From NCBI GenBank assembly GCA_963623075.1, contig CAVFJZ010000005.1, forward strand, positions 7,713-71,712: DNA of 64,000 bases, read 5' to 3'. The position numbers and the translations under genes are program-made. The notes beneath the pieces are model-generated. The model saw nothing but the letters and a program-made list of their open reading frames with translations, made no database searches and was not told the origin of the DNA. Positions 9,981-47,442 of this stretch are shown in pieces (position 1 is the first letter of the stretch; each line of letters starts with the position of its first letter). The DNA comes from Bacteroidaceae bacterium. Lineage in GTDB: Bacteria; Bacillota; Clostridia; Oscillospirales; Acutalibacteraceae.

Positions 9981-10745
9981 ATGTCAGGACATAACAAATG
10001 GAGTACCATTAAGCGCAAAAAGGGTGCTAATGACGCAGCCCGCGCCAAAGTATTCACTAAGATTGGCCGTGAAATTGCCGTTGCTGTAAAGCAGGGCGGT
10101 CCAGACCCTTCTTCCAACTCTAAATTAAAAGACTGCATTGCTAAAGCAAATGCAGCCAACATTCCGAAAGACAACATTGAACGGGCCATCAAAAAAGCCG
10201 CCGGCAGCAATGACGCCGACAACTACATTGAAAACATCTACGAAGGTTATGGCCCGAACGGCATTGCCGTAATTGTAGAAACCCTGACGGATAATAAAAA
10301 CCGTACTGCCGGAGATGTCCGCCATTACTTTGACAAATACGGCGGAAACATGGGCCAGTCCGGTTGTGTTTCTTTCCTGTTTGAACGTTGCGGTGTCATC
10401 TTAATTGACAAAGAAGACGAAGACGAAAATGAAGTAGACGAAGAAAAACTGATGGAAGCCGCACTGGAAGCCGGTGCCGAAGACTTCCTGTCAGATGACG
10501 AAGATGTCTTTGAAATTCGTACCGGTATAAATGACCTTGGCACAGTGCGTGACAATCTGGAATCTGCCGGCTATAAATTCTCTACCGCAGAAGTACAGTA
10601 TGTACCATCTACCTATGTAAAATTAACGGATGAAGAATCCTTAAAGAACATGGCTAAAATGATTGAAATGTTCGAAGATAATGATGACGTTCAGAACGTA
10701 TGGCACAACTGGGAAAACCCGGAAGATGCCGATGCACTTCTGTAA
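9981..10745 (+). CDS. yebC: YebC/PmpR family DNA-binding transcriptional regulator
   Basis: MSGHNKWSTIKRKKGANDAARAKVFTK is the canonical N-terminus. Length is 254 aa. Confidence 0.93.
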   Translation: MSGHNKWSTIKRKKGANDAARAKVFTKIGREIAVAVKQGGPDPSSNSKLKDCIAKANAANIPKDNIERAIKKAAGSNDADNYIENIYEGYGPNGIAVIVETLTDNKNRTAGDVRHYFDKYGGNMGQSGCVSFLFERCGVILIDKEDEDENEVDEEKLMEAALEAGAEDFLSDDEDVFEIRTGINDLGTVRDNLESAGYKFSTAEVQYVPSTYVKLTDEESLKNMAKMIEMFEDNDDVQNVWHNWENPEDADALL

Positions 10746-10748
10746 ATA

Positions 10749-10770
10749 ACCAAACAAAAGGCCCGGGTCA
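10749..10770. repeat. Left arm of a 22/23-nt inverted repeat flanking the island (ACCAAACAAAAGGCCCGGGTCA)
   Basis: It is the reverse complement of 21732-21754 except for one extra T in the right arm. Confidence 0.8.
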
Positions 10771-10839
10771 AAGCCGGAGCGGATAAGGGATAATTTAAAA
10801 ACCATTGTCCATTCGTCTTCAAGCGGGTAAAAAAGAAAC

Positions 10840-10884
10840 AACGGTCACATTGGGAAATCCCCAGAGTGGCCGTTTTTCTTTTTT
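10840..10884. terminator. Hairpin terminator at the end of the R-M/Abi operon
   Basis: AACGGTCACATTGGGA-AA-TCCCCAGAGTGGCCGTT, flanked by an A-run and a T-run. Confidence 0.55.
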
Positions 10885-11776
10885 AGAACAGCCCTTGTAT
10901 TTTTGTCTGTATTAGTCCTGCCGCCAAACTACCTCCAGCATTTATCAAGAAATCCTTTAATCCAACAAGCAGGGCTTTTATTACACTTGGCTTCTTTTCT
11001 TGGGTAATTTTATCTCTGATTTCCGACAGCATTTCCAAGGCGGCGTCTTTATCCTCGCTCTGTAATTGTTCTTGAGAGATAGCGGCTTCAATTTCTGAAA
11101 CAGCTGTGTTTGCTTTATCATACGAAAAAGTCACATTTTCGTTTCCAGAAATTATTTGCATTCCTTTGCTTGGACCATTTATGACATTCGTTGCCCCATA
11201 ATAATTATTGACAGTCTGGGGCATACTTTTCGCCGTTTGTTTTTCCTCATCGCTGAACCGCATTCCTTCACCGAGAACGCCTTCTTCTTCGAGTTTTAGG
11301 GTCCATTCCAAAATAGTGTTTTTAACTTTTTCGACAATGTCCATTACCGAAGCACCGGAAATATGAAGAGCATATCTCATTGGCAAGGGAGAATCGAACA
11401 TCCGATTAAAAAGCTCCAATTGCTCACCAGAAAATTCAGATATCAATTCATTCTCAGCATTTTTGCAAAGAGTAATGATTTCTGAAATGGAATTTGGGAC
11501 TCTTTTCTCGCAGATTGCTTTCTCAAGCTCTGCGTCAGGTATTAAAGTAGGAATCCAGCCCTGATATGGATTGAAAGCCTTTAATACACCTCTGACTTTA
11601 CGATATTCAGGACATGTGTCCTGATTTGGGTAACCATTTAATTCATAAGAAATCCACTGATCAAACTCTTTCAATCCCAGCTTTACAGCAATCACATGAG
11701 CGCGACGAAGTATTTTTACAACATCACACTCTGATGACGTGATTTCATTTTGAAGATCAATAACAATACTGCTCAT
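10883..11776 (-). CDS. AbiTii-domain (abortive infection-like) protein with hydrophobic C-terminal helix
   Basis: The N-terminus (VVKILRRAHVIAVKLGLKEFDQWISYELNGYP...EYRKVRGVLKAFNPYQGWIP) matches my memory of the AbiTii domain pattern. GGAGG RBS overlaps the hsdR stop. Confidence 0.6.
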   Translation of the reverse strand: MSSIVIDLQNEITSSECDVVKILRRAHVIAVKLGLKEFDQWISYELNGYPNQDTCPEYRKVRGVLKAFNPYQGWIPTLIPDAELEKAICEKRVPNSISEIITLCKNAENELISEFSGEQLELFNRMFDSPLPMRYALHISGASVMDIVEKVKNTILEWTLKLEEEGVLGEGMRFSDEEKQTAKSMPQTVNNYYGATNVINGPSKGMQIISGNENVTFSYDKANTAVSEIEAAISQEQLQSEDKDAALEMLSEIRDKITQEKKPSVIKALLVGLKDFLINAGGSLAAGLIQTKIQGLF

Positions 11777-11785
11777 ATTTCCTCC

Positions 11786-14700
11786 TTACGCAGCCACTCT
11801 GTAGCGCGTGTAAACATATTCGTAAATACGCTGGCGGTATTCGGAAATGCTGATTTCGTCATAGCACTCCGGCAGTTCGGCCCAGAGCGTATCGCGGATG
11901 AGATTCTCCACAGCGGCTTTTGTTTCCTGCTTATCTGTCCAGTGATCAAGCTCCGCAATTTTAGCCTTTATCTTTTTCAGAAGGCTTGCAGCCACTTCCT
12001 TGATTTTCTTGATATCCGTCTTGGAGAGATCGTCCCGGAAAAGCATGTCGTACAGCGAAAGCTCCTCATCGCTCTCAAAGCCCTCGCGGACATACCGCTG
12101 TTCTTCCTGATCGAGACTATTGGCCAGATCCATCAGGTCCATAAAGGTTTTCTCAATGGTGGCACGATCCTGCTCACTGTTATAATCAGTGATGATCTGT
12201 TGATACCGCTCATAATAATCAATACGATCCGGATTATTGAAAAGCAGCCGGTCGAGCTTCTGCTGGATGATTTCCTCCAAATCCTTCATTACGAGGTTCT
12301 TTTTCTTCACCTTCGCAAATTCCCGGCGGAGCAAATCAAAGTCGATTGCACTGATGTCAAACCGGCGGGGCTCTTCTTTGACCATCATCGGTGCATCATC
12401 GATCTCCACATATTCGCTGATGATAGAATTAATTTCCACCATCAGATCTGTTGTATCAACGTGACGGCGCTTTTTCTGAAGCTCTCCGTAAATAGCGGCG
12501 ATGGCCTCGTATTCTTTGCGCGTCTGTCCGGTAATATCGTCACGATCCGTGTATTTCATCAAACGGATCAATTCAGATGCGTATGTGGAGAAGGATTTCT
12601 TATCTTCAATAGTACCGCATACGGCATTGGCGGCGGTCTGAAGAAGAGCCAGCTTCATAAAGTCAACTGCGGCCACAAGATCGGCAAGCTCAAAATCGCG
12701 CTCACGGAGGAAGGCTTTCGCCTTTTCAATCGTATCGAGAATACGGGCTATCAGCTCGTCCTTATCAACGGTAGGATCGCCTCCGGGCGTATTTATGTTC
12801 GCGGTGTAATCAGCCAGAGCTTTGCGGAGGGCTTTTACGATGCCAATATAATCGATAATCAAACCGTTACTCTTGCCTTCGTTCACACGGTTTGCACGGG
12901 CAATGGTCTGCATAAGAGTATGTGCCTTCAGCGGCTTGTCGAGATACAGGCAGGACAGGCACTTCACGTCAAAGCCGGTGAGCCACATGGCGCAGACGAA
13001 TACCACCCTAAGCGGATTGGATGCATCTTTGAACTCCTTGTCCAGCTCACGCTTTTCCATTTTCGCCCTGTGATATTTGATATCCAGATCCCATTTTTTG
13101 AAGGTCTGAATCTCATTCTGCTCCTGACTGATCACAACGGCCATTTCCGTTTCTTCCATCCATTTTAGCTTGCGCTCCAGTTCCTGCGCTTCTTGCTGCG
13201 TAGCCGTTTTAATTTTCGCTTTCAGAGCTTTGATTTCTTCTTTCCAGTACGCCTGAACGAAATTATACATACGGACACACGTGACTTTATTGAGGCACAC
13301 GAACATTGCCTTGCCGCTGGTCCACAGGTCGGAATAGTGACCGACAAAATCTTTCGCTATGGATTTCAGGCGAGGTTCCGCCGTCATCAGATGGATTTCC
13401 TTAGCAAATTCCGCTTCGAGCTTATCCTGCTGATCGACGTCGATATCAGCGTTTTCGATGGCGTCAAGTATGCGGTCGGTGATCTCCGGATTATGGAGAT
13501 CGAGTATCTTTTCGCCGCGATTCTCATAGTACAGCGGAACGGTCGCACCGTCCTCCACGGCGCGTTTGAAATCGTAAACAGAGATATAGCCGCCGAAGGT
13601 GCGCGCAGTGATATTGTCGCTGGACAGGAGCGGAGTGCCGGTGAAACCGATACGGGCTGCTGTCGGAAGCAGCTTCATCATGTTGTCGGCAAAGATACCG
13701 TACTGACTGCGGTGCGCTTCATCCGACATAATGATAATATCGTGATCCGGGTAAATCGGCTGTTCGTCCGACCTGTTGAATTTCTGTATCAGCGTGAATA
13801 TGAAGCTCGGATTGCCTTTCAACTTCGTGACGAGGTCACCGCCGCTTGTGGCGATAAACTGTGAGGCTTTCGTTTTACCGAGCAGACCGCAATTTTCAAA
13901 GGTGTCGCTGATCTGCTTGTTCAGTTCATCGCGGTCGGTCAACACCACGATTGTAGGCGATCCGGCAAACTTGCGGCGGATCTTCTGCGCGAGAAATACC
14001 ATAGAATAGCTCTTACCGGAACCTTGAGTATGCCAGAACACGCCCAGTTTGCCGTCGTTGAGCTTCCGTGCCTCGTATGCCTTGACCGCCTCGTTTACAC
14101 CGAGATACTGGTGGTTACGGGCAAGGATTTTTACCGTATTGCCGCCGGAGTGGTCATACAGGATGAAATTCTCCAGCAGATCAAGGAAGTTCTCTTTTTT
14201 GCAGATGCCGCGCAGCATCGTTTCCAAAGCTACGCTGCCTTGCTCTTTTTCGTCAAGGCGCTTCCATTCATGGAAGAATTCATACTTGCTGCCCAGCGTG
14301 CCGACCTTGGCCTCGGTGCCGTTAGACAGTATAAGGAAGGCGTTATAATAGAACAGATGAGGTATCGTATCCTGATAATCGGTATAATTATCATCGTAGG
14401 CGTTCTGTACGTCTACGGTGTTTTTCTTTAATTCCACGAAAAGGAGCGGCAGGCCGTTCACAAAGCCAACGATATCCGTGCGGCGGCGGTAGAGATCGCC
14501 GTGAATCTTCAGTTCTTTGACAGCGAGGAAGTGGTTATTCTCCGGGTGGAGGAAATCGATCACGGCAGCTTTCTTTGTTTCCGTTTTGCCGTCCGGACGC
14601 TTTACTGTCACGGGAATGCCGTCGCGGATTAGGAAATACTTTTCTTCGTTAACCTGAAGGAGCGAGGCTGTGGACAGGCGTTTTTCCAAAACAGCCTGTG

Positions 14701-14923
14701 CTTCAAGAATCTGCGTCTCGGTGATCCAAGGATTGAGCTTTTTCAGGGCAGCACGGAAATATCGCACAAGCAGAATCTCTTTGTACGATTTCCTGCCGAA
14801 GGTGCCATCGTCGCCCAGCACCTCCGTGTTATATGCAAATTTCACTTCCCATTGGAGCTCTTCCCGGAGAAGGTTTCCGGCACTTTCCTGCACAAGTATA
14901 TTTTCTGAATAATCATAGCTCAT
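11786..14923 (-). CDS. hsdR: Type I restriction endonuclease subunit R
   Basis: 1045 aa. Walker A (HTQGSGKS), DEAH box (MSDEAHRSQ) and typical HsdR N- and C-terminal regions. Confidence 0.93.
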   Translation of the reverse strand: MSYDYSENILVQESAGNLLREELQWEVKFAYNTEVLGDDGTFGRKSYKEILLVRYFRAALKKLNPWITETQILEAQAVLEKRLSTASLLQVNEEKYFLIRDGIPVTVKRPDGKTETKKAAVIDFLHPENNHFLAVKELKIHGDLYRRRTDIVGFVNGLPLLFVELKKNTVDVQNAYDDNYTDYQDTIPHLFYYNAFLILSNGTEAKVGTLGSKYEFFHEWKRLDEKEQGSVALETMLRGICKKENFLDLLENFILYDHSGGNTVKILARNHQYLGVNEAVKAYEARKLNDGKLGVFWHTQGSGKSYSMVFLAQKIRRKFAGSPTIVVLTDRDELNKQISDTFENCGLLGKTKASQFIATSGGDLVTKLKGNPSFIFTLIQKFNRSDEQPIYPDHDIIIMSDEAHRSQYGIFADNMMKLLPTAARIGFTGTPLLSSDNITARTFGGYISVYDFKRAVEDGATVPLYYENRGEKILDLHNPEITDRILDAIENADIDVDQQDKLEAEFAKEIHLMTAEPRLKSIAKDFVGHYSDLWTSGKAMFVCLNKVTCVRMYNFVQAYWKEEIKALKAKIKTATQQEAQELERKLKWMEETEMAVVISQEQNEIQTFKKWDLDIKYHRAKMEKRELDKEFKDASNPLRVVFVCAMWLTGFDVKCLSCLYLDKPLKAHTLMQTIARANRVNEGKSNGLIIDYIGIVKALRKALADYTANINTPGGDPTVDKDELIARILDTIEKAKAFLRERDFELADLVAAVDFMKLALLQTAANAVCGTIEDKKSFSTYASELIRLMKYTDRDDITGQTRKEYEAIAAIYGELQKKRRHVDTTDLMVEINSIISEYVEIDDAPMMVKEEPRRFDISAIDFDLLRREFAKVKKKNLVMKDLEEIIQQKLDRLLFNNPDRIDYYERYQQIITDYNSEQDRATIEKTFMDLMDLANSLDQEEQRYVREGFESDEELSLYDMLFRDDLSKTDIKKIKEVAASLLKKIKAKIAELDHWTDKQETKAAVENLIRDTLWAELPECYDEISISEYRQRIYEYVYTRYRVAA

Positions 14924-14934
14924 GCCGCCACCTC

Positions 14935-15780
14935 CTATCCTTCAACAATTTGCTTTTTAAACTCATCAAATGCTTTTTTGCGTTCTACCTGCTCTAATTC
15001 CATAAATGCAAGAAGACACATTTGATAAGTTTCGTCATACCAATGTTCTAATTCCCCCTTGTCAAGTTCGGATACGATTCGTTTATATTTTCCTTTATTT
15101 GAGGGATCAACATTGTTGTGTCGCAAATTCAAATTATTAAAGAGGAAAAACAGATCATCTTTCAAAGAAGATGAGATTTTCTGCAATTCTTTAGATTTTG
15201 CCTCAAGTATCTGGGCAAGTTGCAAAATAATATGTTTTTTCTTTTCAATGTCACCTTTAAGGGCATAATGATCATATTCCAGCACCTTGTATGATAGCTC
15301 TGCCGGAATTAGGTCGCTTTCTGATACAGCAATAGCTACAGGAGATTTTTCAACGAAGATCGTTTTTCCATCATCACTTGCAGATGTATATCCTATGGCT
15401 TCGATCACAAGTCGAATTTGTTCGAGGATAAATGGAATGTTCACTTCCATAGATACAAAGCCGCCATATCCTCCAGAAAAATTAGCCGCTTGCAGGCCGA
15501 AGAGCATATTTTGCAGATATTCACAAAATGAAACCAGATAATCAATATTAAAATCATTTGGCTCTGCTTCGAATTTGAAGCCATACTTTTGATCGAATTC
15601 TTCTATGCTAAGGCACGTCCCACGAAAATAAAAATGTGCAAAATTCTCTCCAAAAACTTCATATAAAGATTTCGTTCTATGATCAATGGCTTCTTGATGT
15701 AATATCGAATACAGCTTACGATACTCTTGTCTGATATCTACGTTGCCTTCCCTTAATACTTGTGCAAAAGACTTCCTCAT
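14935..15780 (-). CDS. Hypothetical protein embedded between hsdS and hsdR (no recognisable motif)
   Basis: 281-aa ORF. GAGGTG RBS lies inside the hsdS 3' end, and the junction with the hsdS stop reads TAAtATG. 11-nt gap to hsdR. Much more AT-rich than its neighbours. Confidence 0.75.
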   Translation of the reverse strand: MRKSFAQVLREGNVDIRQEYRKLYSILHQEAIDHRTKSLYEVFGENFAHFYFRGTCLSIEEFDQKYGFKFEAEPNDFNIDYLVSFCEYLQNMLFGLQAANFSGGYGGFVSMEVNIPFILEQIRLVIEAIGYTSASDDGKTIFVEKSPVAIAVSESDLIPAELSYKVLEYDHYALKGDIEKKKHIILQLAQILEAKSKELQKISSSLKDDLFFLFNNLNLRHNNVDPSNKGKYKRIVSELDKGELEHWYDETYQMCLLAFMELEQVERKKAFDEFKKQIVEG

Positions 15781-15781
15781 A

Positions 15782-16954
15782 TTACACCTCGATTTCGCTG
15801 CTCATCAGCTTGGGAAGCAGACGGTCACGGGCCTGTGCCGCAATTTCATTCTCCCTTTGCAATAACCGTATTCTTTCAAAATATGGGGAGACAATGCCGC
15901 AAAAAGCAGTTAGGACTCCTTCACTCGGGACTCTCAGCACCAATGCGTTTAAATCCTTGGCATAGACATGAGGTTGTGCGGATCCTTTTTGCAGAGAATT
16001 CAGTTTCATCGCATTGGTCTTCAGGAAGCAATAAACAAAAAGCAGGAATGGCGTGCTATTGCTATCAATGTAAGAGCAATCTGAGGCAAAAACATCTATA
16101 TTATAGAGCCTTGTAAAACCTGCATTAGCGCCAGAAGCACTAACCGTTATAACCGGAGCAGTTGTGTTTGCCTTGTTGTGATAATATGCTGGCTCCAATC
16201 CTCCAGCTACGACAGGGATATTTCCATCTGAAACTTGAGCTTTCGTTATTGTTTTTCCACGTTTAAAGACTGCAATATCACCGAGAGTACCATCCGCCCA
16301 TCCTTCCGGCACACCGTCAACGATAGGAGTATCCTCATATCCGGGGAAGCGGAGGTCGACAAACCACTCCTTATATAACCGCTGTGCCGCTTCTTCAAGC
16401 AGTTTGATTTGCTTCTGGTTGTTTTCGATGAGGTTGTCGTAGGCAGCAATAATAGCAGAGATTTTGCATTGCAGTTCGTAATCAGGTATATCAAAGGAAA
16501 ATGATTTTATAGTGTCTAATGTTATGCTTGCTTGATTGGCAGCACCTCTTGCTTCGCCAATTACATGTCCTTTGAAATCATCACAGCGCAATCTGTAATA
16601 CAGAAAATCCCTATCGACTCTTTCATTGGGGATTAGTTTAACTGCATTCTGATTCAATAAAGCTCCATCAAGATAATAAGGCACATGAACGACTTTGCCG
16701 ACAACAGATGCAGGGTTGTACTGCCAAGATCCAACGGTTTGAACAATTATATCTTTCTCGCGTAAAACGAAGTCAGAATAATTGACTCTCTCTCTTTCAG
16801 GATAGTATTTCAAATCTTCATCTGAAATACTGTCTAATGTAAAATTTGATACGCGTACTATTGGTACTCCGGACTCAACATACAAATCACTTTTAAACGC
16901 AAACCCCTTTTTTGTTGATACCAATTCGCCTACAGTAACTCTATTCCAACTCAT
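15782..16954 (-). CDS. hsdS: Type I restriction-modification specificity subunit S
   Basis: Two target-recognition halves separated by a conserved helical spacer (LIENNQKQIKLLEEAAQRLYKEWFVDLRFPG). The terminal helix is RDRLLPKLMS. ATGA overlap with hsdM. Confidence 0.9.
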   Translation of the reverse strand: MSWNRVTVGELVSTKKGFAFKSDLYVESGVPIVRVSNFTLDSISDEDLKYYPERERVNYSDFVLREKDIIVQTVGSWQYNPASVVGKVVHVPYYLDGALLNQNAVKLIPNERVDRDFLYYRLRCDDFKGHVIGEARGAANQASITLDTIKSFSFDIPDYELQCKISAIIAAYDNLIENNQKQIKLLEEAAQRLYKEWFVDLRFPGYEDTPIVDGVPEGWADGTLGDIAVFKRGKTITKAQVSDGNIPVVAGGLEPAYYHNKANTTAPVITVSASGANAGFTRLYNIDVFASDCSYIDSNSTPFLLFVYCFLKTNAMKLNSLQKGSAQPHVYAKDLNALVLRVPSEGVLTAFCGIVSPYFERIRLLQRENEIAAQARDRLLPKLMSSEIEV

Positions 16955-18816
16955 ATCCCCATCTCCTTCATATTCATTGAGATGGTATCCATCAAATCGT
17001 TGGATTCAGCCTGAAGGGACAGAAGTTCACGGTGAATCTCCGCCATACGCTCCGCAAAATCTATACCGTCATCCTCCACGGGAGCGACGCCCACATACGC
17101 GCCGGGTGTGAGCGACCAGCCCTTTTCTTCGATTTCGGCAAGTGAGGCCAGCTTACACAGTCCGAGTACGTCAGTATAAACACCGTCACCGAACTTCTCG
17201 TAGAGCCAGTGTGCTTCCTTGGCAACGTTCAGCATGTTCTCAATGTAGGCGACTCTATCGTCATACTCCTGCTGCACGCTCTTTTTGTCACGCTTCCCGG
17301 CAGCTTCCACTTCGGCTTTTGCGGCCTTTCGTAGTGTGGAGAGCTTTTCCTTCAGCGCAGAAACGATATCGGCAAAGGATTCCTGATATACAGCCTCTTT
17401 CAAATCGTCATTTTCAGCGGCCTCGGCTTCATCGTGCAGATAGTGGTGGTATTCCTGCAGCAGAGCCGTATACTTGTCGGTCTCACCGCGATAAAGCCAT
17501 ACGATGGCGTTCAGGTTTTTAAGCTGCCATTCGCTCCACTCATTCAGCGTTCGGTCCACAACTGTATAGTAATTCCGGGCATCGATGAACAGAACCTTAT
17601 CCCGGATTGCTTCGCCCTTCGCTTTATCGAAAAACCACAGGGAGCAAGGCAGCGATTTCGTATAGAAGAAATTATTACCGACGGAGATCATCACGTCAAC
17701 GTGACCGGTCTTGATGAGCTTTTCCCTGATATCCTTATCCTTGCCCTGACTATCCGTAGCAGAGGATGCCATAACAAAACCGGCGCGGCCATGCTCGTTC
17801 AGATAGGAATAGAAATAGGAGATCCATAGGTAATTGGCGTTGCCGACCTCTTTGTTCTTGTTTACGCTCGGCAGGCCGAACGGAAGACGTCCGGCGTTCT
17901 CGCAGGATTCGGCTTTGACCTTATCTACATTAAACGGAGGATTCGCCATGATGTAGTCACAGCAGCCGTTCAGGTTATGTGCGTCATGATAGAAGGTATT
18001 TGCCTCGTCTCCGGATTTGATAACACCCGTCAGGCCGTGCACCGCCATGTTCATCAGGCAGAGCTGAGCGTTGTACTCCACCTTTTCCTGTCCGTAGAAG
18101 GTCATGGTGCTGTTGGCATTCATACCGGCGGCGTTCACAAAATCTCCGCTCTGTACGAACATACCGCCGCTGCCGCACGCGCAATCGAGAAGAACACCCT
18201 GTTTCGGCTCAATGATGTTTACGATCATTTTTACGAGAGATTTCGGTGTGAAGAACACACCGTCATCAGAGGCGATGTTTTTAGCAAATTTGTTGAGGAA
18301 GTATTCGTAGATGCGCCCGATGATATCGCCGCCGACATCGTCAAGGGCGCTGTTATTGAAAATACGAAGAAGCTCTGCCAGCAGCTCGTCAGAGAAGTCG
18401 GTATAGCTTTTCGGCAAAACACCTGTGAGCTGTTCGCTTTGGTCCTCGATCAGCTGCATGGCGTTGTTGACCACTTCACCGAGACTGTTCATCGGGTGGC
18501 CGTCTTTATTGATAAGTCCTGCCGCCGCGATATTCTCCGGCAGATTGACAAGATACTCGTACTGCGCCTCTTTCGGCAGGAACAGTGCGCTCTTTGCGGA
18601 AAAGTCGCTGGCCTCCACGGGCATTACGCGTCCGCCGCGAGAGGGACGGTCTTTCAATATCTCGGCTTCGACCTTCTTGAAGCGGCTGTACGCATAGCGC
18701 AGAAAGATGAGACCCAGCACGGGCATACAGTATTGATTCGAGGTCAGCTTTGACCCGGCACGAAGGAGATCGGCGGATTCCCACAGTTCCGCTTCCAGTT
18801 TCCGTATGTTAATCAT
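16951..18816 (-). CDS. hsdM: Type I restriction-modification N6-adenine DNA methyltransferase subunit M
   Basis: HsdM N-terminal domain, SAM motif (LLDCACGSGGMF) and catalytic NPPF (IMANPPFNV). Confidence 0.93.
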   Translation of the reverse strand: MINIRKLEAELWESADLLRAGSKLTSNQYCMPVLGLIFLRYAYSRFKKVEAEILKDRPSRGGRVMPVEASDFSAKSALFLPKEAQYEYLVNLPENIAAAGLINKDGHPMNSLGEVVNNAMQLIEDQSEQLTGVLPKSYTDFSDELLAELLRIFNNSALDDVGGDIIGRIYEYFLNKFAKNIASDDGVFFTPKSLVKMIVNIIEPKQGVLLDCACGSGGMFVQSGDFVNAAGMNANSTMTFYGQEKVEYNAQLCLMNMAVHGLTGVIKSGDEANTFYHDAHNLNGCCDYIMANPPFNVDKVKAESCENAGRLPFGLPSVNKNKEVGNANYLWISYFYSYLNEHGRAGFVMASSATDSQGKDKDIREKLIKTGHVDVMISVGNNFFYTKSLPCSLWFFDKAKGEAIRDKVLFIDARNYYTVVDRTLNEWSEWQLKNLNAIVWLYRGETDKYTALLQEYHHYLHDEAEAAENDDLKEAVYQESFADIVSALKEKLSTLRKAAKAEVEAAGKRDKKSVQQEYDDRVAYIENMLNVAKEAHWLYEKFGDGVYTDVLGLCKLASLAEIEEKGWSLTPGAYVGVAPVEDDGIDFAERMAEIHRELLSLQAESNDLMDTISMNMKEMGI

Positions 18817-19039
18817 CCTTTTTCTCTCCTTCCGGGTTATCGGGTATAAACTCCATCATATCGTTGGGGGAGCAGCCCATAGCGTGGCAAATGCTCTCTA
18901 CCTTATCCAAGGCGATGTACTGCCCGTTTTTGATTTTTGTAATTATGTTTGCGGAAATGTTCGCACGGCGCATCAGCTCTGCATTGGAAATATCCCGTTC
19001 GATCATCATATGCATTAGTGGTTTATAACTCACGGCCAT
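18809..19039 (-). CDS. XRE-family helix-turn-helix protein (candidate controller of the R-M operon)
   Basis: 76 aa. HTH region ISNAELMRRANISANIITKIKNGQ. Overlaps the hsdM start by 8 nt. Confidence 0.8.
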   Translation of the reverse strand: MAVSYKPLMHMMIERDISNAELMRRANISANIITKIKNGQYIALDKVESICHAMGCSPNDMMEFIPDNPEGEKKDD

Positions 19040-19072
19040 ATCATCAGACTCCTTATCTCAAATAACTTATTC

Positions 19073-19101
19073 AGTATATCACACTTATGTGAAAAAATCA
19101 A
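19073..19101 (-). promoter_or_regulatory. Sigma-A-type promoter for the XRE-hsdMS-orfX-hsdR-abi operon
   Basis: On the minus strand: TTGATT, a 17-nt spacer, then TGaTATACT (extended -10). It lies about 35 nt upstream of the XRE start. Confidence 0.45.
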
Positions 19102-19143
19102 TAAATATATTTTGAATTTTAGACCTCCGGGAATTTCTCGGAG

Positions 19144-19385
19144 TTTTTTCATTTTCTTTCGTTCAAAATCGCTCCTTTTGTCCAGTGGGTAGTGGAGAGA
19201 AGAAATTTTCGGAAACCGTCAGTTTTGGCCCTCCGCCGAGGCTACCAGATGAGGGAACGAAATTTTTCTTCAAAAAAAGCGGACCACATCGGCTGTTCAT
19301 GACCGGTGGGAAGTGAAGGAAAGATTTTTCTCCGAAAAAGCGGACCACTTGGATGGTTTTCCTCCAGTGGGTATTGAGGACGGGA
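19144..19385. repeat. Four degenerate direct repeats of about 60 bp upstream of the primase gene
   Basis: Units start near 19144, 19206, 19263 and 19325. The shared pattern is TTTTC..GAAA..CGGACCAC..CCAGTGGG.A.TGAGGA. The last two units are the most similar. Confidence 0.55.
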
Positions 19386-19414
19386 TAAGCCCTCCGGAAA
19401 GGATGATCAGAAAT

Positions 19415-20995
19415 ATGTATGAAAAGCTGCCACAGGAATTAAAAGAGCGAGGTGCTTTCTGCCTCTGGAAATATGAGGAGCGTGACGGAAACAGAACCAA
19501 GGTGCCGTACCAGACGAACGGCCTTTGTGCGGATTCCTCAAACAAGGCCACATTCACGGATTACGCAATCGCCGTCAGGCATAGGGCCGCATATGACGGT
19601 ATCGGCATAGGCGTTTTCGGGGACATCTGCGCCATTGACATCGACAGCTGTGTCGAGAACGGCGTGCTGTCGGATATGACCGAGGACATCATCGTCCGGA
19701 TGGATACCTATACGGAATACAGCCCGTCCGGGACCGGCGTGTGGATTCTGTTCAAAGCCTTGCTCCCGGCCTACAACAAGGATCGCTATTACATCAATAA
19801 CCGCCGGATCAAGCTGGAGGTCTATGTGGCCGGGTACACAAGCCGCTTTGTCACCGTTACCGGAAACGCCATCAGCGGCACCGGCATCGAGGAGCGAACA
19901 GACGCTCTGACGGAGGTGCTTGAGAAATATATGCGGAAGGCCGAAAAGCCTGTATCCCGTGTAGCCGCTCCGGGCAGCTATCTCTCCGATGAATCCGTTC
20001 TCCAGAAGGCTTTTGCCTCCAAACAAAGCGAGAAGTTCAAGGCGCTGTGGGACGGCATCATCCCGAAGGGCCAATCGCACAGCGAGGCTGACGCAGCCGT
20101 GTGTGCGATGCTGGCGTTCTGGTGCGGCGGCGATATGGAGCAGATGGACCAGCTGTTCAGGCAATCGGCTCTGATGCGGGATAAGTGGAACCGGGATGAT
20201 TACCGCACGGCCACACTTACCAAGGCCGTGGCGATGTGTACGGAATTTTACAAGCCCGTGGACAGGTCCTCGGCGGCGGACGATTTCAACGACCTCCAGC
20301 AGATCGTGGCCTCGCTCCATCCGGCGGAGAATGACCGATATCCGTGGAACGACATCGGCAACGGCAGATTGTTCGCAGACGTGTTCAAGGCCATCGCCCG
20401 TTTCGTCCCGGAGCGAAAACAGTGGCACATCTATGACGGAACACGCTGGTCTCCGACACCGGCTCTCTGAAGGCGATGGAGCTTTGCAAGGCTCTGGCCG
20501 ATGCGCTCATGCGGTACGCCCTCGATATCCACGATGAGCATAAGCGCAAGAGTTACATCGATTTCTGCCGTAAATGGCAGAGCCGCCATATGCGGATCAC
20601 GATCCTATCCGATGCACAGAGCGTATATCCGATCTCCATGCAGGAGTTCGACAGCGACCGTTTCCTGTTCAACTGCGCTAACGGTACGCTCGATCTCCGC
20701 ACGATGGAGTTCCGGGGCCACAGTGCAGAGGACCGGCCGACCAAGATCACACCCGTGGAATACGATCCCCACGCTTGGAGCGACCGCTACAGCCGATTCA
20801 TAAGCGAGATCATGAGCGGCGATACGGAAAAGGCCAAGTTCCTGCAAAAGGCCCTCGGCTACTCCGTCAGCGGCGATACCCGTTTCGAGTGTATGTTCTT
20901 CCTTTACGGCGAGACCACCCGTAACGGCAAAGGGACGCTGATGGAAAGCATTCTCCGGGTCATGGGCGATTACGGACGAGCCGTCAGGCCGGAGA
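19415..20995 (+). pseudogene. Prim-Pol / P4-family primase-helicase, frameshifted near 20450-20470 and 3'-truncated near 21000
   Basis: AEP motifs (AIDIDSC, YSPSGTG), a PriCT-like segment (SHSEADAAVCAMLAFWCGGD) and a D5_N/P-loop part (FLYGETTRNGKGT). The P-loop part continues in another frame after the TGA at 20468. Confidence 0.75.
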
Positions 20996-20999
20996 CGAT

Positions 21000-21662
21000 T
21001 GCGGCTCAAGGCTGTATCAGGTCCGGCACCGGGGCTGGACGCACGAACAGGAGATTTTCGTCTGCGCCAAGTACCGTAAGCACAAAGGAATGTGTACTCC
21101 GCACCAGATCCACAATGTTCAGGTTGAGGAAATCCTGCTCCGGGAACTGCGGCTCATCACCGCCTACGCTCGTGAGCACGAGGATGATTTCATTCAGCCG
21201 GTCACACGGCACAGCGAAAAAGAACTGACCCGGCAGCTCCGTGACAGCACTCGTGAACTTGCACAGGCAGAGGAGCGCATCGGCAAGTTGGACGGCATAA
21301 TTCAGCGGCTCTACGAGGATAATGTTGAGGGCAAGATCAGCGATGAGCGTTTTGCCAAGCTGTCCGCCTCCTATGAGGCCGAGCAGAATCAGCTGGAAAG
21401 CCGCAAAGTCGAGCTTACCGAGTTCATCGCTGCCTCAAAGGAACAGCGGCTGAACGTGGACTCCTTCCTCGGCATGGTGCGTAAGTACACGGACATAACG
21501 GAACTGACCGCTGAGATCATCCGATCCTTCGTGGAGAAAATCGAGGTCAAGAAACCGGAGAAGGTCCCCGGCACACGCACAAAAAAGCAAACCGTAGTTA
21601 TCTACTGGAATTTCATCGGGGCCGTTGAAATCTCCGTTGAATCGCAAGAAAAGACGGCATAG
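21000..21662 (+). pseudogene. Large serine recombinase, C-terminal fragment only (partial zinc ribbon, coiled coil, DUF4368-like end)
   Basis: The frame reads CGSRLYQVRHRGWTHEQEIFVCAKYRKHKGMCTPHQIHNVQVEEILL...KISDERFAKLSASYEAEQ...ITELTAEIIRSFVEKIEV. No resolvase catalytic domain precedes it. Confidence 0.75.
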
Positions 21663-41730: not shown

Positions 41731-42339
41731 TTAACCTCCGTGGCTACAGAATTCACAGCCGCAATAATCTTGGCGATACAGCCCGTGTTCTTTAGAAAGC
41801 ACAATAGAACGTTTGTAGCCGTCTTTCTTCTTAAAGTCTGATGGCAAGAATGGAACTCCGTACTGGTCCCCTAAACGCTGCCCGATGACATTCAGAAGGG
41901 CAGCATTTTTGTAGGGGCTGACGGAAAGCGTGGTGCAGTACCAGTCAAAGCCTCCGGCTTTGGCGTAGATTGCTGCACCGCGCAACCGCTGTTCATAACA
42001 GACATGGCAGCGGTTACCGCCTTCCGGTTCCCGTTCCAAACCTGCAATTTTTTGCAGGTATTCTTCGTGATGATACTCCCCTTCTACAAAGGAAATGGCG
42101 GAACCGGCTGCGTTCATTTCTGTTATGAGCCGCTGCTGCTCTGCCTTGCGGTGGAGATATTCCTCTGCCGGAGCAATGCACGGATTATAGTAAAATACGG
42201 TTAAATTAAACCAGGGTTCCAAATATTCCAGTACGTAACTGGAACAAGGTCCACAGCAACTGTGGAGCAGCAGCCGCGGCTTGTCCGTCAGCCCCGCCAA
42301 CACTTGCTCCAATTGCTTCTGGTAATTTATTTTTTCCAT
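41731..42339 (-). CDS. queH: Epoxyqueuosine reductase QueH
   Basis: LLLHSCCGPCSSYVLEYL motif (DUF208/QueH), 202 aa. Confidence 0.88.
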   Translation of the reverse strand: MEKINYQKQLEQVLAGLTDKPRLLLHSCCGPCSSYVLEYLEPWFNLTVFYYNPCIAPAEEYLHRKAEQQRLITEMNAAGSAISFVEGEYHHEEYLQKIAGLEREPEGGNRCHVCYEQRLRGAAIYAKAGGFDWYCTTLSVSPYKNAALLNVIGQRLGDQYGVPFLPSDFKKKDGYKRSIVLSKEHGLYRQDYCGCEFCSHGG

Positions 42340-43361
42340 TACCCTTTTTCCTCCAGGCTTTTGTACAAAGCCAGCGTAGTAGCCGCTCTTTCCTTCAGTT
42401 TTTCTTTCATTCCCGGAGGATTCAGTATCAGCATTTTGTCCCCAAACTGATTAACCCAGTTCAGGAATCCTTCTGAGTCAGAGGCATGCACCTTTGCCAC
42501 AAACCGATCTCCTTTCCGAAAGGAAATAGGCGTAGTTTGACCAAAGCGATCCTTTACCTCATCCAAGAGCAAATTGCTGCACAGGAGTTCCACCTTAACC
42601 GACTTTCCGGAGAATCCGTTAAAGTTCTGTTCAATGTAATCTACCACATCAAAGCCATCTGTATAATTGCTAAATTCAGCGCAATCCCGTGCAGGCTCCT
42701 CTAAAATTTCCACACCCACAATCCGATCTACCCGAATCTGCATGAAGTTGTCATGAGTTTCTCTGTTGCAAATGGCATAATAACGATCATTAGACCAGAT
42801 TAAAGCATACGGTGTCAAGGTAAATATTCTTTTTTCGCGATGCGGTGCTTCTCCGGACACATAGCGGAACTTATAATAACTCAGCCGTACTTTTTTCTTT
42901 TGGCTGATAGCCTCTGCCAAATCATTAATGTAGTAATATGTCTTACTATTTGTGGTTTTGGTGTTTGCACTAAAGAACACCGACTCCTGTAAGAATTTCT
43001 GATCATAGACACTGAAATCTGACAGAATTTTTTCTGTCAGTGCCGTTGTTTTTTCAGCAGTAATAAATCCGGCAGAGCGAACCGCATCAATCAGCAGCCG
43101 AGCTTCCGGCAATTCAAATTTTCTGGAGCCAAGGAATACACCCTTTTTACCGGAAGAAACTTTTACAATATCATATCCGTATTCCTGCAATGCGCTCAAA
43201 TCTGTATAAATAGATTTTCGTTCTGCCTTAATTCCGGCTCGTTTTACCAACTGTGCAATAATTTTGTCAGAATTCAAAGGATGGCTTTCATCTGTTAAAT
43301 CCTTCAGAATATCCACCAAATATAAGAGTTTCAATTTGGTCTTTCTTTTTTCGTTATTCAT
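42339..43361 (-). CDS. HTH-WYL domain transcriptional regulator
   Basis: N-terminal winged-HTH (KLLYLVDILKDLTDESHPL) and a WYL-type core (LTPYALIWSNDRYYAICN). Confidence 0.8.
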   Translation of the reverse strand: MNNEKRKTKLKLLYLVDILKDLTDESHPLNSDKIIAQLVKRAGIKAERKSIYTDLSALQEYGYDIVKVSSGKKGVFLGSRKFELPEARLLIDAVRSAGFITAEKTTALTEKILSDFSVYDQKFLQESVFFSANTKTTNSKTYYYINDLAEAISQKKKVRLSYYKFRYVSGEAPHREKRIFTLTPYALIWSNDRYYAICNRETHDNFMQIRVDRIVGVEILEEPARDCAEFSNYTDGFDVVDYIEQNFNGFSGKSVKVELLCSNLLLDEVKDRFGQTTPISFRKGDRFVAKVHASDSEGFLNWVNQFGDKMLILNPPGMKEKLKERAATTLALYKSLEEKG

Positions 43362-43472
43362 CCTGTCACCCCCAGATTAATTTACCTATCCTAACTCTAC
43401 CACCACGGAACTTTATTGTCCATTCTTTCGGACATTGCTTTATGTTATAATAGCCACGATGGGAGATTTACT

Positions 43473-44012
43473 ATGTTAGAACAACTACTGGAAAACCTGG
43501 ATACGCAAGAAGACAAACTCAGCTTTACCAAAATCTACAAGAAATACGAACAAATTATTTTGAAGGTTTCCTACAAGTCCTTGGATAACCCTGCATTTTT
43601 AGAAGATTGTATTCAGGAAACGTTTCTTCAACTAATCCCAGTTTATTCTACCTTTCTTGGTTTAAAGGAACCTCAACAGAAGAACTATTTAATTACTATT
43701 TGCAAACGATGTGCTTATAAACTAAACAATAAAGAACCTTCATCTTCTTTAGAAGATGTACCAGAAAAAGAACTGTATCGCTTGGAGGAAGCGTCTTTTA
43801 CCAACTATAGTCAGACAGAATTAGTTATGGTCATTAAGACCTTAAACGAAAAGTACAGTCTTCCGCTTTTATTAAAATATGCAGATGGATATACCAATGC
43901 AGAAATTGCCGAATTACTCGACATTCCCGAAAATTTGGTAGCACAGCGGATCCGCCGCGGAAAAGAAAAGATCCGTCAAATCTTAATAGAAGGTGACTCT
44001 CATGACAGATGA
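43473..44012 (+). CDS. Sigma-70 family (ECF-like) RNA polymerase sigma factor
   Basis: Region 2 (EDCIQETFLQL) and region 4 HTH (YADGYTNAEIAELLDIPENLVAQRIRRGKEKI). GGGAG lies before the ATG at 43473. Confidence 0.8.
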   Translation: MLEQLLENLDTQEDKLSFTKIYKKYEQIILKVSYKSLDNPAFLEDCIQETFLQLIPVYSTFLGLKEPQQKNYLITICKRCAYKLNNKEPSSSLEDVPEKELYRLEEASFTNYSQTELVMVIKTLNEKYSLPLLLKYADGYTNAEIAELLDIPENLVAQRIRRGKEKIRQILIEGDSHDR

Positions 44013-44652
44013 TCTGCTTTTAAGAAAAGCTTGTGTAGAAGCAAAGCACCAATTGTTGGAAGAAGAACTCCAATATCTGAATCAGCAGGCAGATGTGATA
44101 TTGCCTGCGGCCAAGCGAAGAAGAATTTTAAAATCTTTAAGTCAGTTAAATGTACAACAAAAAAAACCTACATCAGTTCAGCATACCACCAGCCTCAAAA
44201 AGAATCTGAAAATGGGGTTGCTGATTGCTGTTCTCTTGGTTTTGTCAACCATTGCCGTTGTTGCCATCTCGCATGACTCTCTCATAATCAGCTTCTCTTC
44301 AACTGCGCAAACAGATTCTGTTGCATCAACTTTTACGCCACCGGATGGATTTGATTTGGCAAAAGAAGAAATGGGTAACACCAAACAAGAAGTCCTCTTC
44401 TTAAATGACAAAAACGAATTCATACGGATTACTACACAAAAAGTCGGACAAGAACATACGTTCAGCGTATCGGACTCTGTTCCCACCCAGATTATGATTG
44501 ACGGACATACCGGATACTATGTTATAGAGGATAATTACATTACTTTGCTCTGGTGCACCGGCCAATATGAACATATTATTTGGGCGCCTTTAACCAGTAA
44601 TTTCACAGTAGATAACGCCATCCAACTTGCTCTCTCCCGAACAGAGAAATAG
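44002..44652 (+). CDS. Anti-sigma factor-like membrane protein with DUF4367-like extracytoplasmic domain
   Basis: Overlaps the sigma gene by 11 nt. One TM helix (LLIAVLLVLSTIAVVAI) and a C-terminal domain typical of clostridial anti-sigma partners. Confidence 0.6.
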   Translation: MTDDLLLRKACVEAKHQLLEEELQYLNQQADVILPAAKRRRILKSLSQLNVQQKKPTSVQHTTSLKKNLKMGLLIAVLLVLSTIAVVAISHDSLIISFSSTAQTDSVASTFTPPDGFDLAKEEMGNTKQEVLFLNDKNEFIRITTQKVGQEHTFSVSDSVPTQIMIDGHTGYYVIEDNYITLLWCTGQYEHIIWAPLTSNFTVDNAIQLALSRTEK

Positions 44653-44711
44653 ACAAAGAAAAGAAGCCGCAATTGCAACGCGAAGTTACAATTGCGGCTT
44701 CTTCGTTTAAT

Positions 44712-45119
44712 CTAATATCCACCGTCTACATATTTCCAGGTAGTATCGATTTTCGTTTTTGCCAAAATAAACATCCAATCCTGACAGGTGGTTCCGGCTT
44801 CAAATGGAGTAAATGGCGGAACTTCATTGGCAACTATAATATTCCCTTTCAAGACCATTATTTTATCATATTTTTCTGTTCCCCAGCTGCCTTTCCTATT
44901 TTTCTTATAAAACTCCTTTGTTGCCTCCTGATCATAATGTAGTCCGTCAAGGCTAAAATAAGATTCATAAAATTTATCTTCTGCCACCTGCTTGGCCTCT
45001 GCAATCTCCATATCAGAATAATTTACCTGCGGTTTGCAAATCAACGCCACAATAGTAACCGCTATTGCCACCACCAAAAAGATAACCAGAAGCAACCGTA
45101 AATAAAACTTTTTCTTCAC
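44712..45119 (-). CDS. Membrane-anchored hypothetical protein
   Basis: N-terminal TM helix. ATGA coupling with the upstream lipoprotein gene. Confidence 0.55.
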   Translation of the reverse strand: MKKKFYLRLLLVIFLVVAIAVTIVALICKPQVNYSDMEIAEAKQVAEDKFYESYFSLDGLHYDQEATKEFYKKNRKGSWGTEKYDKIMVLKGNIIVANEVPPFTPFEAGTTCQDWMFILAKTKIDTTWKYVDGGY

Positions 45120-45424
45120 AAGAAACCCCCTTTACACTTCTGTTCTGGAATTTGCCACTCATGCCCTGTAGAAGGGCACTCTGAAGATGAGTCCTTCTCT
45201 TTACTGGTGATACGTATAAACTCACCTGCATCATTAATCATAACAAGGTCTTGCTCTGCAGTTCTACACTCATCTTTCACAATACTATACCCAGATGGCG
45301 ACGTAAAACTGGCTCGCAAAGAATCTTGGGAAGCTTCCGCTTGACCATCCTTGCAACCAGAAAGATCAAAGAGCAAGGTTACCGTACAAACTAGAAGAAT
45401 TGATGACTTTAGAATTGGCATCAT
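45116..45424 (-). CDS. Small lipoprotein resembling the N-terminal part of a DUF4367 domain (truncated paralogue of 44002-44652)
   Basis: Lipobox FDLSGC. SFTSPSGYSIVKDE...LVMINDAGEFIRITSKE parallels TFTPPDGFDLAKEE...VLFLNDKNEFIRITTQK. Confidence 0.55.
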   Translation of the reverse strand: MMPILKSSILLVCTVTLLFDLSGCKDGQAEASQDSLRASFTSPSGYSIVKDECRTAEQDLVMINDAGEFIRITSKEKDSSSECPSTGHEWQIPEQKCKGGFL

Positions 45425-45442
45425 TTTCTCTTCCTCATCTAG

Positions 45443-47359: not shown

Positions 47360-47442
47360 TGGTGCGCCCGGCGGGACTTGAACCCGCACACCGAGGTACA
47401 TGCTCCTAAAACATGCGTGTCTGCCAATTTCACCACAGGCGC
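47360..47442 (-). tRNA. tRNA-Leu (anticodon UAG), CCA encoded
   Basis: Hand-folded on the minus strand. Acceptor GCGCCTG/CGGGCGC, anticodon stem CATGT/GCATG with loop TTTAGGA, a long variable arm, T-arm GCGGG-TTCAAGT-CCCGC, and a 3' ACCA. Confidence 0.88.

Follow-up and report, generated by a model that had tools for sequence, protein, structure and literature searches.

Why does a type I restriction-modification (R-M) operon from a gut member of the Clostridia carry two passenger genes, one between hsdS and hsdR and the other after hsdR? We addressed this question for an operon on contig CAVFJZ010000005.1 (GCA_963623075.1), within a stretch of 64,000 nucleotides (nt) at contig positions 7,713-71,712 that is referred to here as the window; all coordinates below are window positions. 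The operon lies on the minus strand, spans 19039-10883 and comprises six genes in the order XRE-hsdM-hsdS-orfX-hsdR-abi. At the nucleotide level, the two positions occupied by orfX and abi hold different genes among operons that are otherwise 80-97% identical. The explanation we favour, and hold to be probable with moderate confidence, is that a horizontally acquired, autoregulated type I R-M operon serves as a chassis whose two cargo slots are occupied by autonomous second-line defence genes. The six genes are the following.

18809..19039, minus strand: XRE/HTH_26 small regulator, 76 amino acids (aa); HTH_26 1.1e-16 (Pfam)
16951..18816, minus strand: hsdM, type I N6-adenine methyltransferase subunit, 621 aa; N6_Mtase 3.8e-70, HsdM_N 1e-13, PADLOC MTase_I 5.9e-291
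15782..16954, minus strand: hsdS, specificity subunit, 390 aa; two Methylase_S matches
14935..15780, minus strand: orfX, 281 aa, passenger in the hsdS-hsdR slot; uncharacterised family
11786..14923, minus strand: hsdR, restriction/translocase subunit, 1045 aa; HSDR_N 1.8e-39, SWI2_SNF2 7.9e-69, T1R_D3 4.5e-20, ResIII, TIGR00348 1.4e-145
10883..11776, minus strand: abi, 297 aa, passenger after hsdR; PF18864 4e-46, PADLOC AbiTii 4.7e-49 and AbiTi 2.6e-10

An earlier sequence-only reading of this DNA had described six coupled genes separated by overlaps or by gaps of at most 11 nt, and the open reading frame coordinates and junction sequences agree with it exactly. The XRE stop overlaps the hsdM start by 8 nt (ATGATTAA), ATGA is common to the hsdM end and the hsdS start, and the hsdS/orfX junction is TAAtATG. 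Gaps of 11 and 9 nt separate orfX from hsdR and hsdR from abi, respectively. The GGAGG that had been placed over the hsdR stop is seen as AAGGAGG, abutting that stop upstream of abi, and all six operon genes have a GGAG-type Shine-Dalgarno sequence 5-11 nt before the start codon. The identities assigned to XRE, hsdM, hsdS, hsdR and the AbiTii-like gene are borne out by matches to Pfam, PADLOC and NCBIfam models. HsdM retains the catalytic NPPF motif (MANPPFN) and the S-adenosylmethionine-binding motif DCACGSGG (DCACGSGGM). The HsdR nuclease (D...ELK, as D...VELKK) and helicase motif II (DEAH, as MSDEAHRSQ) are likewise intact, and its TIGR00348 score is 486 bits (cut-off 284 bits). Together, HsdM, HsdS with two target-recognition domains (TRDs), and HsdR with a PD-(D/E)xK nuclease and a superfamily 2 translocase have the sequence features of a type I R-M system. 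The operon is thus intact by sequence and predicted to be active.

Relatives of the operon were retrieved via orfX and Abi homologues and compared with it at the nucleotide level. Slot 1 denotes the interval from the hsdS stop to the hsdR start, and slot 2 that from the hsdR stop to the terminator. Three tracts of the relative L001 are 96-97% identical to the window: the one from 19192 up to the start of hsdS, the central region of hsdS, and the one from the C-terminus of hsdS across orfX to the stop of hsdR, exactly where homology ceases. The Oscillospiraceae metagenome-assembled genome L081 is 86-88% identical over XRE, hsdM, the conserved parts of hsdS and hsdR; its terminator is also homologous, and its abi gene is 85% identical. 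Slot 1 of L081 contains a 192-aa Mrr_cat gene in place of orfX, with breaks at the hsdS stop and at the hsdR ATG. Two contigs of a ~92%-identical relative (X1 and X2) have a different slot 1 insert, 1161 nt long versus 860 nt in the window and seen through its 30-nt loose ends, and diverge from the window at 11781 and 19168. Slot 1 holds orfX plus one to four further genes in L022, L029, L032, L033 and L039, and is empty in L087 and L095. The sequence-only reading had proposed that passengers were inserted into a backbone, and the slot occupants indeed differ between near-identical operons: hsdMSR operons with and without the inserts have orfX, Mrr_cat, another insert or nothing in slot 1.

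Slot 2 is similarly variable. It is occupied by abi in the window and in L081, by a gene for a 435-aa protein with a C-terminal CAP12/Pycsar TIR effector domain (PF10137, 1.8e-37) in Ruminococcus bromii ATCC 27255 (L003, 9964-11268; gene order XRE-hsdMS-orfX-hsdR-TIR), and by a Schlafen-like SLFN_AlbA_2 gene in L004, while L002 has the terminator only. The nucleotide identity of orfX to the window copy is 100% in L001, 99% in L002 and 97% in L003, at backbone identities of 96-97%, 69-81% (hsdM, hsdR) and 89-93%, respectively. The near-identical tract in L002 runs from ~15790 to ~14880, and so covers orfX together with ~40 nt at the start of hsdR; outside this tract, divergence is 20-40%. This near-identical orfX tract in a diverged operon points to a recombination patch and a recent cassette transfer. 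A second type I gene order, hsdR-hsdM-hsdS-[slot]-ImmA/IrrE-DUF4411, was found in L010 and L182, whose backbones are 78-82% identical. The slot after hsdS contains orfX in L010 (8001-10516) and an AbiTii-like gene in L182 (6001-8571), followed in both by an HTH-Peptidase_M78 (ImmA/IrrE) gene and a DUF4411/PIN gene. As read from these alignments, cargo exchange takes place through recombination within the conserved flanking sequence.

The homology breaks against L001, L003, L081 and X1 also divide hsdS into segments.

~16450-16945, minus strand: hsdS TRD1
16298-16449, minus strand: hsdS central conserved region
15833-16297, minus strand: hsdS TRD2
15782-15832, minus strand: hsdS conserved C-terminal stretch

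The sequence-only reading had suggested a cassette-like replacement of one TRD. This is what distinguishes the window from X1/X2, in that TRD1 alone, the AT-rich half, differs and TRD2 is ~96% identical; it does not describe the comparison with L001, L003 and L081, in which both TRDs differ. No extra hsdS copies or inverton were found within the window.

The base composition of these parts was then computed (GC3 is the GC content of third codon positions).

Window: GC 0.454
hsdM: GC 0.513, GC3 0.63
hsdR: GC 0.492, GC3 0.60
orfX: GC 0.357, GC3 0.31
abi: GC 0.390, GC3 0.34
hsdS TRD1: GC 0.369
hsdS central region: GC 0.507
hsdS TRD2: GC 0.430

The computed values are non-uniform and near the hand counts from which a GC mosaic had been proposed, although the alignments with relatives favour the sequence-only reading more strongly than composition does by itself. 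The GC3 of orfX was below that of the adjacent hsdM/hsdR or mod/res genes at 30 of 31 loci, by 0.19 on average and whatever the host GC. AT-richness is thus a trait of the orfX family and no sign of a recent arrival here. It could stem from a common pool of AT-rich donors, from selection that keeps expression low, or from silencing. The hsdM/hsdR backbone and the adjoining remnant of a mobile element, described below, deviate upward from the window mean, and these GC-rich parts depart from it as much as the AT-rich passengers do.

We next asked how the two passengers are distributed. A profile search of 1.84 billion representatives (E <= 1e-3) placed orfX in a family that numbers at least 1,246 clusters (50% identity), of which the named ones are all called 'hypothetical protein'. 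The hosts are chiefly Clostridia, with some Treponema, Bacteroides, Collinsella, Deferribacteraceae and Methanocorpusculum. Genomic context was assessed at 80 species-level genome loci, with R-M neighbours counted within four genes. At 29 of the 80 loci orfX had hsd genes as neighbours, in two gene orders (M-S-X-R and R-M-S-X), and in 18 of these 29 it directly followed hsdS with gaps of 1-13 nt. At 10 loci it stood beside type III mod/res or N6_N4 methylase genes, some type III loci being ordered SNF2-DUF4391-orfX-mod-res. An obligatory partner gene outside R-M was not found, the non-R-M neighbour clusters having at most 7 members.

The context of Abi was counted over 61 informative metagenome loci. 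The gene came directly after hsdR in 19, stood elsewhere in a type I operon in 9, and had no hsd gene nearby in 33; where it followed hsdR, it started 9-14 nt downstream or overlapped the hsdR end. XRE-hsdMSR-Abi operons occur in Lactobacillus iners and other lineages, and stand-alone Abi copies lie next to OLD-like or SMODS/SLATT genes. Distant homologues were present in 114 plasmid records, and all three that were inspected stand alone. Linkage to R-M in homologous operons, on which the sequence-only reading had staked its case, is therefore recurrent for both passengers (39/80 loci for orfX, 28/61 for Abi), and the notion that they are never linked to R-M fails.

Two side observations concern the same genes. 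Outside intact R-M operons, L027 and L041 have orfX within 1-6 kb of an AbiTii-like gene that is 43% identical to that of the window, and at L027 an hsdR 3' fragment directly follows the Abi gene. Separately, the Abi homologues P0281, P0335 and P0367 are named 'ABC transporter substrate-binding protein' in NCBI, which looks like a propagated misannotation.

These distributions bear on how the passengers relate to the R-M enzyme. On a PrrC-type guard model, one or both passengers would be held inactive through physical contact with the type I enzyme and released as suicide effectors once a phage anti-restriction protein (Ocr-, ArdA- or Stp-like) disables that enzyme. PrrC/EcoprrI is a precedent (PMC3710099), and embedding in type I operons (29/80 and 28/61 loci) far exceeds what we would expect for an unrelated gene, an expectation set without a computed background rate. 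The junctions also suggest tight translational coupling, with orfX 1-13 nt after hsdS and Abi 9-14 nt after hsdR or overlapping it. However, both families also occur without hsd genes and in at least two unrelated type I orders, and orfX is found with type III systems as well; with so many different partners, a specific protein contact with all of them is unlikely. Moreover, neither passenger has the ABC-ATPase plus HEPN architecture of PrrC/RloC. We therefore regard the guard model as unlikely, and as less likely than autonomous cargo. For autonomy, the evidence from orfX consists of the two type I gene orders, type III mod/res, the GmrSD or TIR neighbours and the loci without R-M, and that from Abi of its standing alone at 33/61 loci and in the three plasmid records inspected, and of its alternation with orfX in the L010/L182 slot. 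The company of the passengers is of a defence type, including TIR, Mrr, GmrSD and ImmA/DUF4411 genes. From domains and context, we infer a layered defence.

What orfX does was approached through its sequence and predicted structure. It has no match in Pfam, NCBIfam, PHROGs or, by sequence, the PDB, and matched no family of PADLOC-DB v2.0.0, including the PDC models of that release, at E <= 0.01. Domain matches in a Pfam scan of 77 diverse members were rejected as fusion or ORF-call artefacts with HsdS, HsdM and HsdR_N pieces. The confident AlphaFold model (predicted local distance difference test, pLDDT, 86.6; predicted template-modelling score, pTM, 0.72) is all-alpha with one hairpin, and a Foldseek search with it against PDB and BFVD returned nothing below E = 0.05 (template-modelling score about 0.15). 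About 20 polar residues are near-invariant across the family. The invariant or near-invariant positions include Y169, H171, K181, N215, R220-H221-N222-N223, E245, Y248 and D249, and the most conserved motifs are YNH...KG and NNLNIRHNN. This conserved cluster of His, Arg, Lys, Tyr, Asn, Glu and Asp suggests that orfX is probably an enzyme. The 'RHNN' was considered as a HEPN motif and rejected, as R220 and H221 are adjacent, no His lies 4-6 residues downstream, and Foldseek found no HEPN structure.

One specific chemistry was considered, namely that orfX is a diverged all-alpha nucleotide pyrophosphohydrolase of the MazG kind, which would deplete or sanitise (modified) dNTPs and so complement R-M against phages with modified DNA. 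It arose from a marginal match (E = 0.024) of the C-terminal helix to the integron MazG structures 2Q73 and 2Q5Z with family profile A2; that helix bears the invariant E245-x3-D249, with E87-x3-N91 on a different one. Profile A1, built from the closer family, does not reproduce the match, the Foldseek search with the pLDDT 86.6 model found neither MazG nor any other fold at E < 0.05, and the YNH...KG and NNLNIRHNN motifs have no MazG counterpart, which makes this identity very improbable.

orfX might also not be a defence gene at all. It could act as an accessory or regulator of R-M (for instance in the alleviation of restriction, in assembly or in establishment), or be a cassette, selfish or neutral, that hitch-hikes in a recombination hotspot. 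Consistent with this, no similarity to a defence family or to a nuclease or NADase fold was found, and no homologue was present in GenBank phage records or PLSDB plasmids. Within R-M loci it is always downstream of hsdS or upstream of mod, a possible place for a stoichiometric accessory. Yet near-identical operons carry an Mrr-like gene, another gene or nothing in the slot, so orfX is dispensable for the R-M enzyme, and in the L010/L182 backbone it is replaced by a recognised Abi-type gene. The conservation of ~20 polar residues, near-invariant in a family of at least 1,246 clusters, also argues for a selected, probably enzymatic, function. We consider a non-defence role quite unlikely. A bolder version of the defence reading, that orfX founds a new, widespread single-gene anti-phage family with undescribed catalytic chemistry, specialised for transport within R-M operons of types I and III as an AT-rich cassette, is a tentative proposal that we would not yet call likely. 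As a less conventional and speculative extension of that proposal, orfX may sense the failure of restriction in general.

The second passenger is better placed among known families. Abi has an N-terminal AbiTii alpha+beta domain at residues 3-185 (PF18864 158 bits, cut-off 27.6), a disordered linker at 190-214 and a C-terminal four-helix bundle at 219-296; residues 196-292 match the PADLOC AbiTi model. By these domain matches, Abi is a fusion of the two lactococcal AbiT modules in one polypeptide. A HEPN/RNase effector was rejected for it: the protein lacks His beyond H137, residues 196-297 include a single Arg, and no Rx4-6H is conserved in 37 homologues.

The remaining component of the favoured explanation is the regulation of the operon, for which the candidate signals are as follows.

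19073..19101, minus strand: promoter-like site TTGATT-17 nt-TATACT with a TG extended -10; 9/12 plus TG, and position
19079..19092, minus strand: palindrome TCACAtaagTGTGA, candidate XRE operator (autorepression), between the -35 and -10 hexamers
10828..10885, minus strand: intrinsic terminator hairpin with A and U runs, bidirectional form; -28.4 kcal/mol, z = -3.77

Both the promoter-like site at 19073-19101 and the terminator at the operon end had been predicted, and both were read there, the latter as a hairpin 3' of abi that overlaps the abi stop codon; homology to L081 continues through it as far as 10814. The promoter-like site sits in the only sizeable intergenic region upstream of the operon. 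Such sites occur in the region at chance frequency (14 found versus 14.7 expected from shuffles), so that only its position supports this one. The palindrome has the form TCACA-N4-TGTGA and is also present in L001, where its conservation is weak evidence because the surrounding region is 96% identical overall. XRE gave a weak match to PADLOC Control_protein (2e-4), and its best PDB sequence match, the only one at E <= 0.01, is the VanU-like 3TYR. The same XRE-to-hsdM gene coupling is found in L081 and in L. iners L087. Searches for runs yielded no RNA run with the operon sequence, only contigs of the ~92%-identical relative and DNA metagenomes, and co-transcription of the six genes is a prediction. 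As a separate observation, a terminator-like hairpin, CTCCGGGAATTTCTCGGAG followed by TTTTTT, lies on the plus strand at 19125-19143, just upstream of the -35 hexamer. It could be an insulator against leftward or rightward read-through, or a protein-binding palindrome.

Taken together, the favoured explanation of an autoregulated chassis with autonomous cargo would operate as follows. A single transcript would run from the 19101-19073 promoter to the terminator at ~10830, and the XRE protein would repress its own promoter via the TCACAtaagTGTGA palindrome, resembling RptR or C proteins. HsdM2S would methylate, and R2M2S restrict, a bipartite target set by the two TRDs. The passengers would be autonomous second-line defence genes that share the regulation and mobility of the operon and do not need the R-M enzyme. 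In the AbiTii-like protein, the N-terminal domain may sense infection and the C-terminal four-helix bundle act, and orfX would be a single-gene effector, probably an enzyme.

Several observations weigh against this explanation. As many as 41 of the 80 orfX loci have no detected R-M gene within four genes, and the remaining neighbours are heterogeneous, comprising GmrSD, TIR, type II R-M, integrase and unrelated genes, including some housekeeping genes. The library, PDB and BFVD searches gave no domain, motif or fold tying orfX to a known defence mechanism, and what makes it a reasonable candidate for a phage-defence gene is its genomic context alone. Foldseek with the C-terminal domain of Abi returned generic helical bundles only, with no significant PDB or RNase-like match. 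A lone 5+5 palindrome is the basis of the operator assignment. The coding strand also has promoter-like sites within the operon, about as many as chance predicts, and one of these is at 15254-15227 inside orfX; because of them, the genes could be read from separate transcripts instead of one operon mRNA. Finally, the runs mislabelled 'RNA?' (X1, X2) gave 23-29 kb contigs of the ~92%-identical relative, in which depth is flat across the whole related operon (compared with window 10700-19300), as for assembled DNA, and is uninformative on transcription.

The layout has a close parallel in the RptR-RMS-DarTG2-M48 (RRDM) island of enteropathogenic Escherichia coli (EPEC) E2348/69, which was horizontally acquired and whose hsdS-hsdR site was called a likely defence recombination hotspot (PMC12255303). 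Both have a small regulator gene (~76-79 aa) directly before hsdM, a passenger between hsdS and hsdR, and a further gene after hsdR. The likeness is in layout only. The regulator here is an XRE/HTH_26 protein for which a PDB sequence search, with no direct comparison to RptR and no check that the PDB copy includes an RptR entry, detected no RptR similarity. No TAGCTA, TAGATA or TATCTA hexamer occurs in 19040-19200, the candidate operator being the one palindrome described above; the only variant hexamer in that interval is TATATA at 19105-19110, within AT-rich sequence immediately preceding the -35, and such sites do not recur as direct repeats. The cargo is orfX and an AbiTii-like gene, not DarTG2 and an M48 peptidase, and the host is a gut member of the Clostridia, not a gammaproteobacterium, with the operon known here from sequence alone.

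Type II C proteins offer a second comparison for the regulator, as they too are encoded by a small lambda-cI-like HTH gene that is coupled to the first R-M gene and has a palindrome in its own promoter. The position differs, in that a C gene usually comes before the endonuclease gene of a type II system and the XRE gene before hsdM of a type I system.

For the cargo, precedents include PrrC/EcoprrI and HEPN genes embedded in R-M operons (PMC3710099), TgvAB of Vibrio VPI-2, a defence in a type I operon (PMC11411939), and the PDC candidates in type I operons from a 'guilt-by-embedding' survey (bioRxiv 10.1101/2024.01.29.577857). Embedded genes of type I operons, including the Campylobacter rlo genes, are typically second-line or complementary defences (PMC3710099; PMC11411939; bioRxiv 10.1101/2024.01.29.577857). 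The present operon shares with the PrrC, rlo, TgvAB and PDC operons a same-strand gene nested between hsdS and hsdR and cargo that varies among related operons. Unlike their cargo, orfX lacks a HEPN, GmrSD or ABC-ATPase domain and is also found in type III operons; and unlike the PrrC/RloC anticodon nucleases, neither passenger has an ATPase or HEPN domain, although the embedding is present. AbiTii-domain proteins have been reported in operons with R-M systems (PMC3710099). Abi resembles lactococcal AbiT (abiTi + abiTii; PMC3710099, PMC13064643) in its clear AbiTii domain and AbiTi-like C-terminal segment, but is one fused polypeptide with no separate AbiTi partner gene, a terminator following abi. 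It also differs from the AbiTii-HEPN fusions of the c2405 and Ymh types (Anantharaman 2013; PMC3710099), in that its C-terminus lacks an Arg/His HEPN motif.

The operon lies in an island flanked by housekeeping genes, with yebC ending at 10745 and a PASTA kinase gene starting at 22449. The island also contains the GC-rich remnant mentioned above.

19313..21662, plus strand: mobile-element remnant, GC 0.55-0.59, with a prim-pol-like gene (NrS-1 HBD), a D5_N gene and a DUF4368 recombinase fragment

The DUF4368 (serine-recombinase C-terminal) fragment overlaps the D5_N fragment, and in L. iners (L089) a DUF4368 fragment likewise adjoins the XRE-hsdMSR-Abi operon. Three to four copies of a ~61-nt unit with the core CCAGTGGGTAGTG, at spacings of 121 and 61 nt, lie at 19176-19400, on the stretch from the R-M promoter to the prim-pol-like gene, and look like iterons or the origin of a decayed mobile element. 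The homology of the R-M module ends inside this repeat region for L001 (19192), and at 19168 for X1. Elsewhere in the window, a second low-GC stretch (0.35-0.40) at 42339-46582 contains an Amidase_6 gene and genes for a WYL-WCX regulator and an extracytoplasmic function (ECF)-type sigma factor, the last accompanied by a DUF4367 gene. This stretch adjoins the only tRNA gene of the window (47363-47442) and may be another island.

Defence genes embedded in type I operons were already known; what is new here is the particular cargo and the unusually clear evidence of cassette exchange. The locus is an unusually clean natural example of type I R-M operons as a chassis for defence cargo, in that two sharply delimited positions of near-identical backbones are taken by orfX, Mrr-like, AbiTii-like, TIR or Schlafen-like genes, and the orfX cassette appears to have been caught in recent transfer between diverged backbones. 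If regulation is as proposed, the XRE-hsdM coupling would extend the idea of a dedicated type I repressor, as in RptR, to Firmicutes with an unrelated regulator. To our knowledge, few defence systems have been validated in gut anaerobes, and we nominate orfX as a large family for phage-defence testing in these organisms. Should it prove to act in defence, orfX probably works by a new mechanism.

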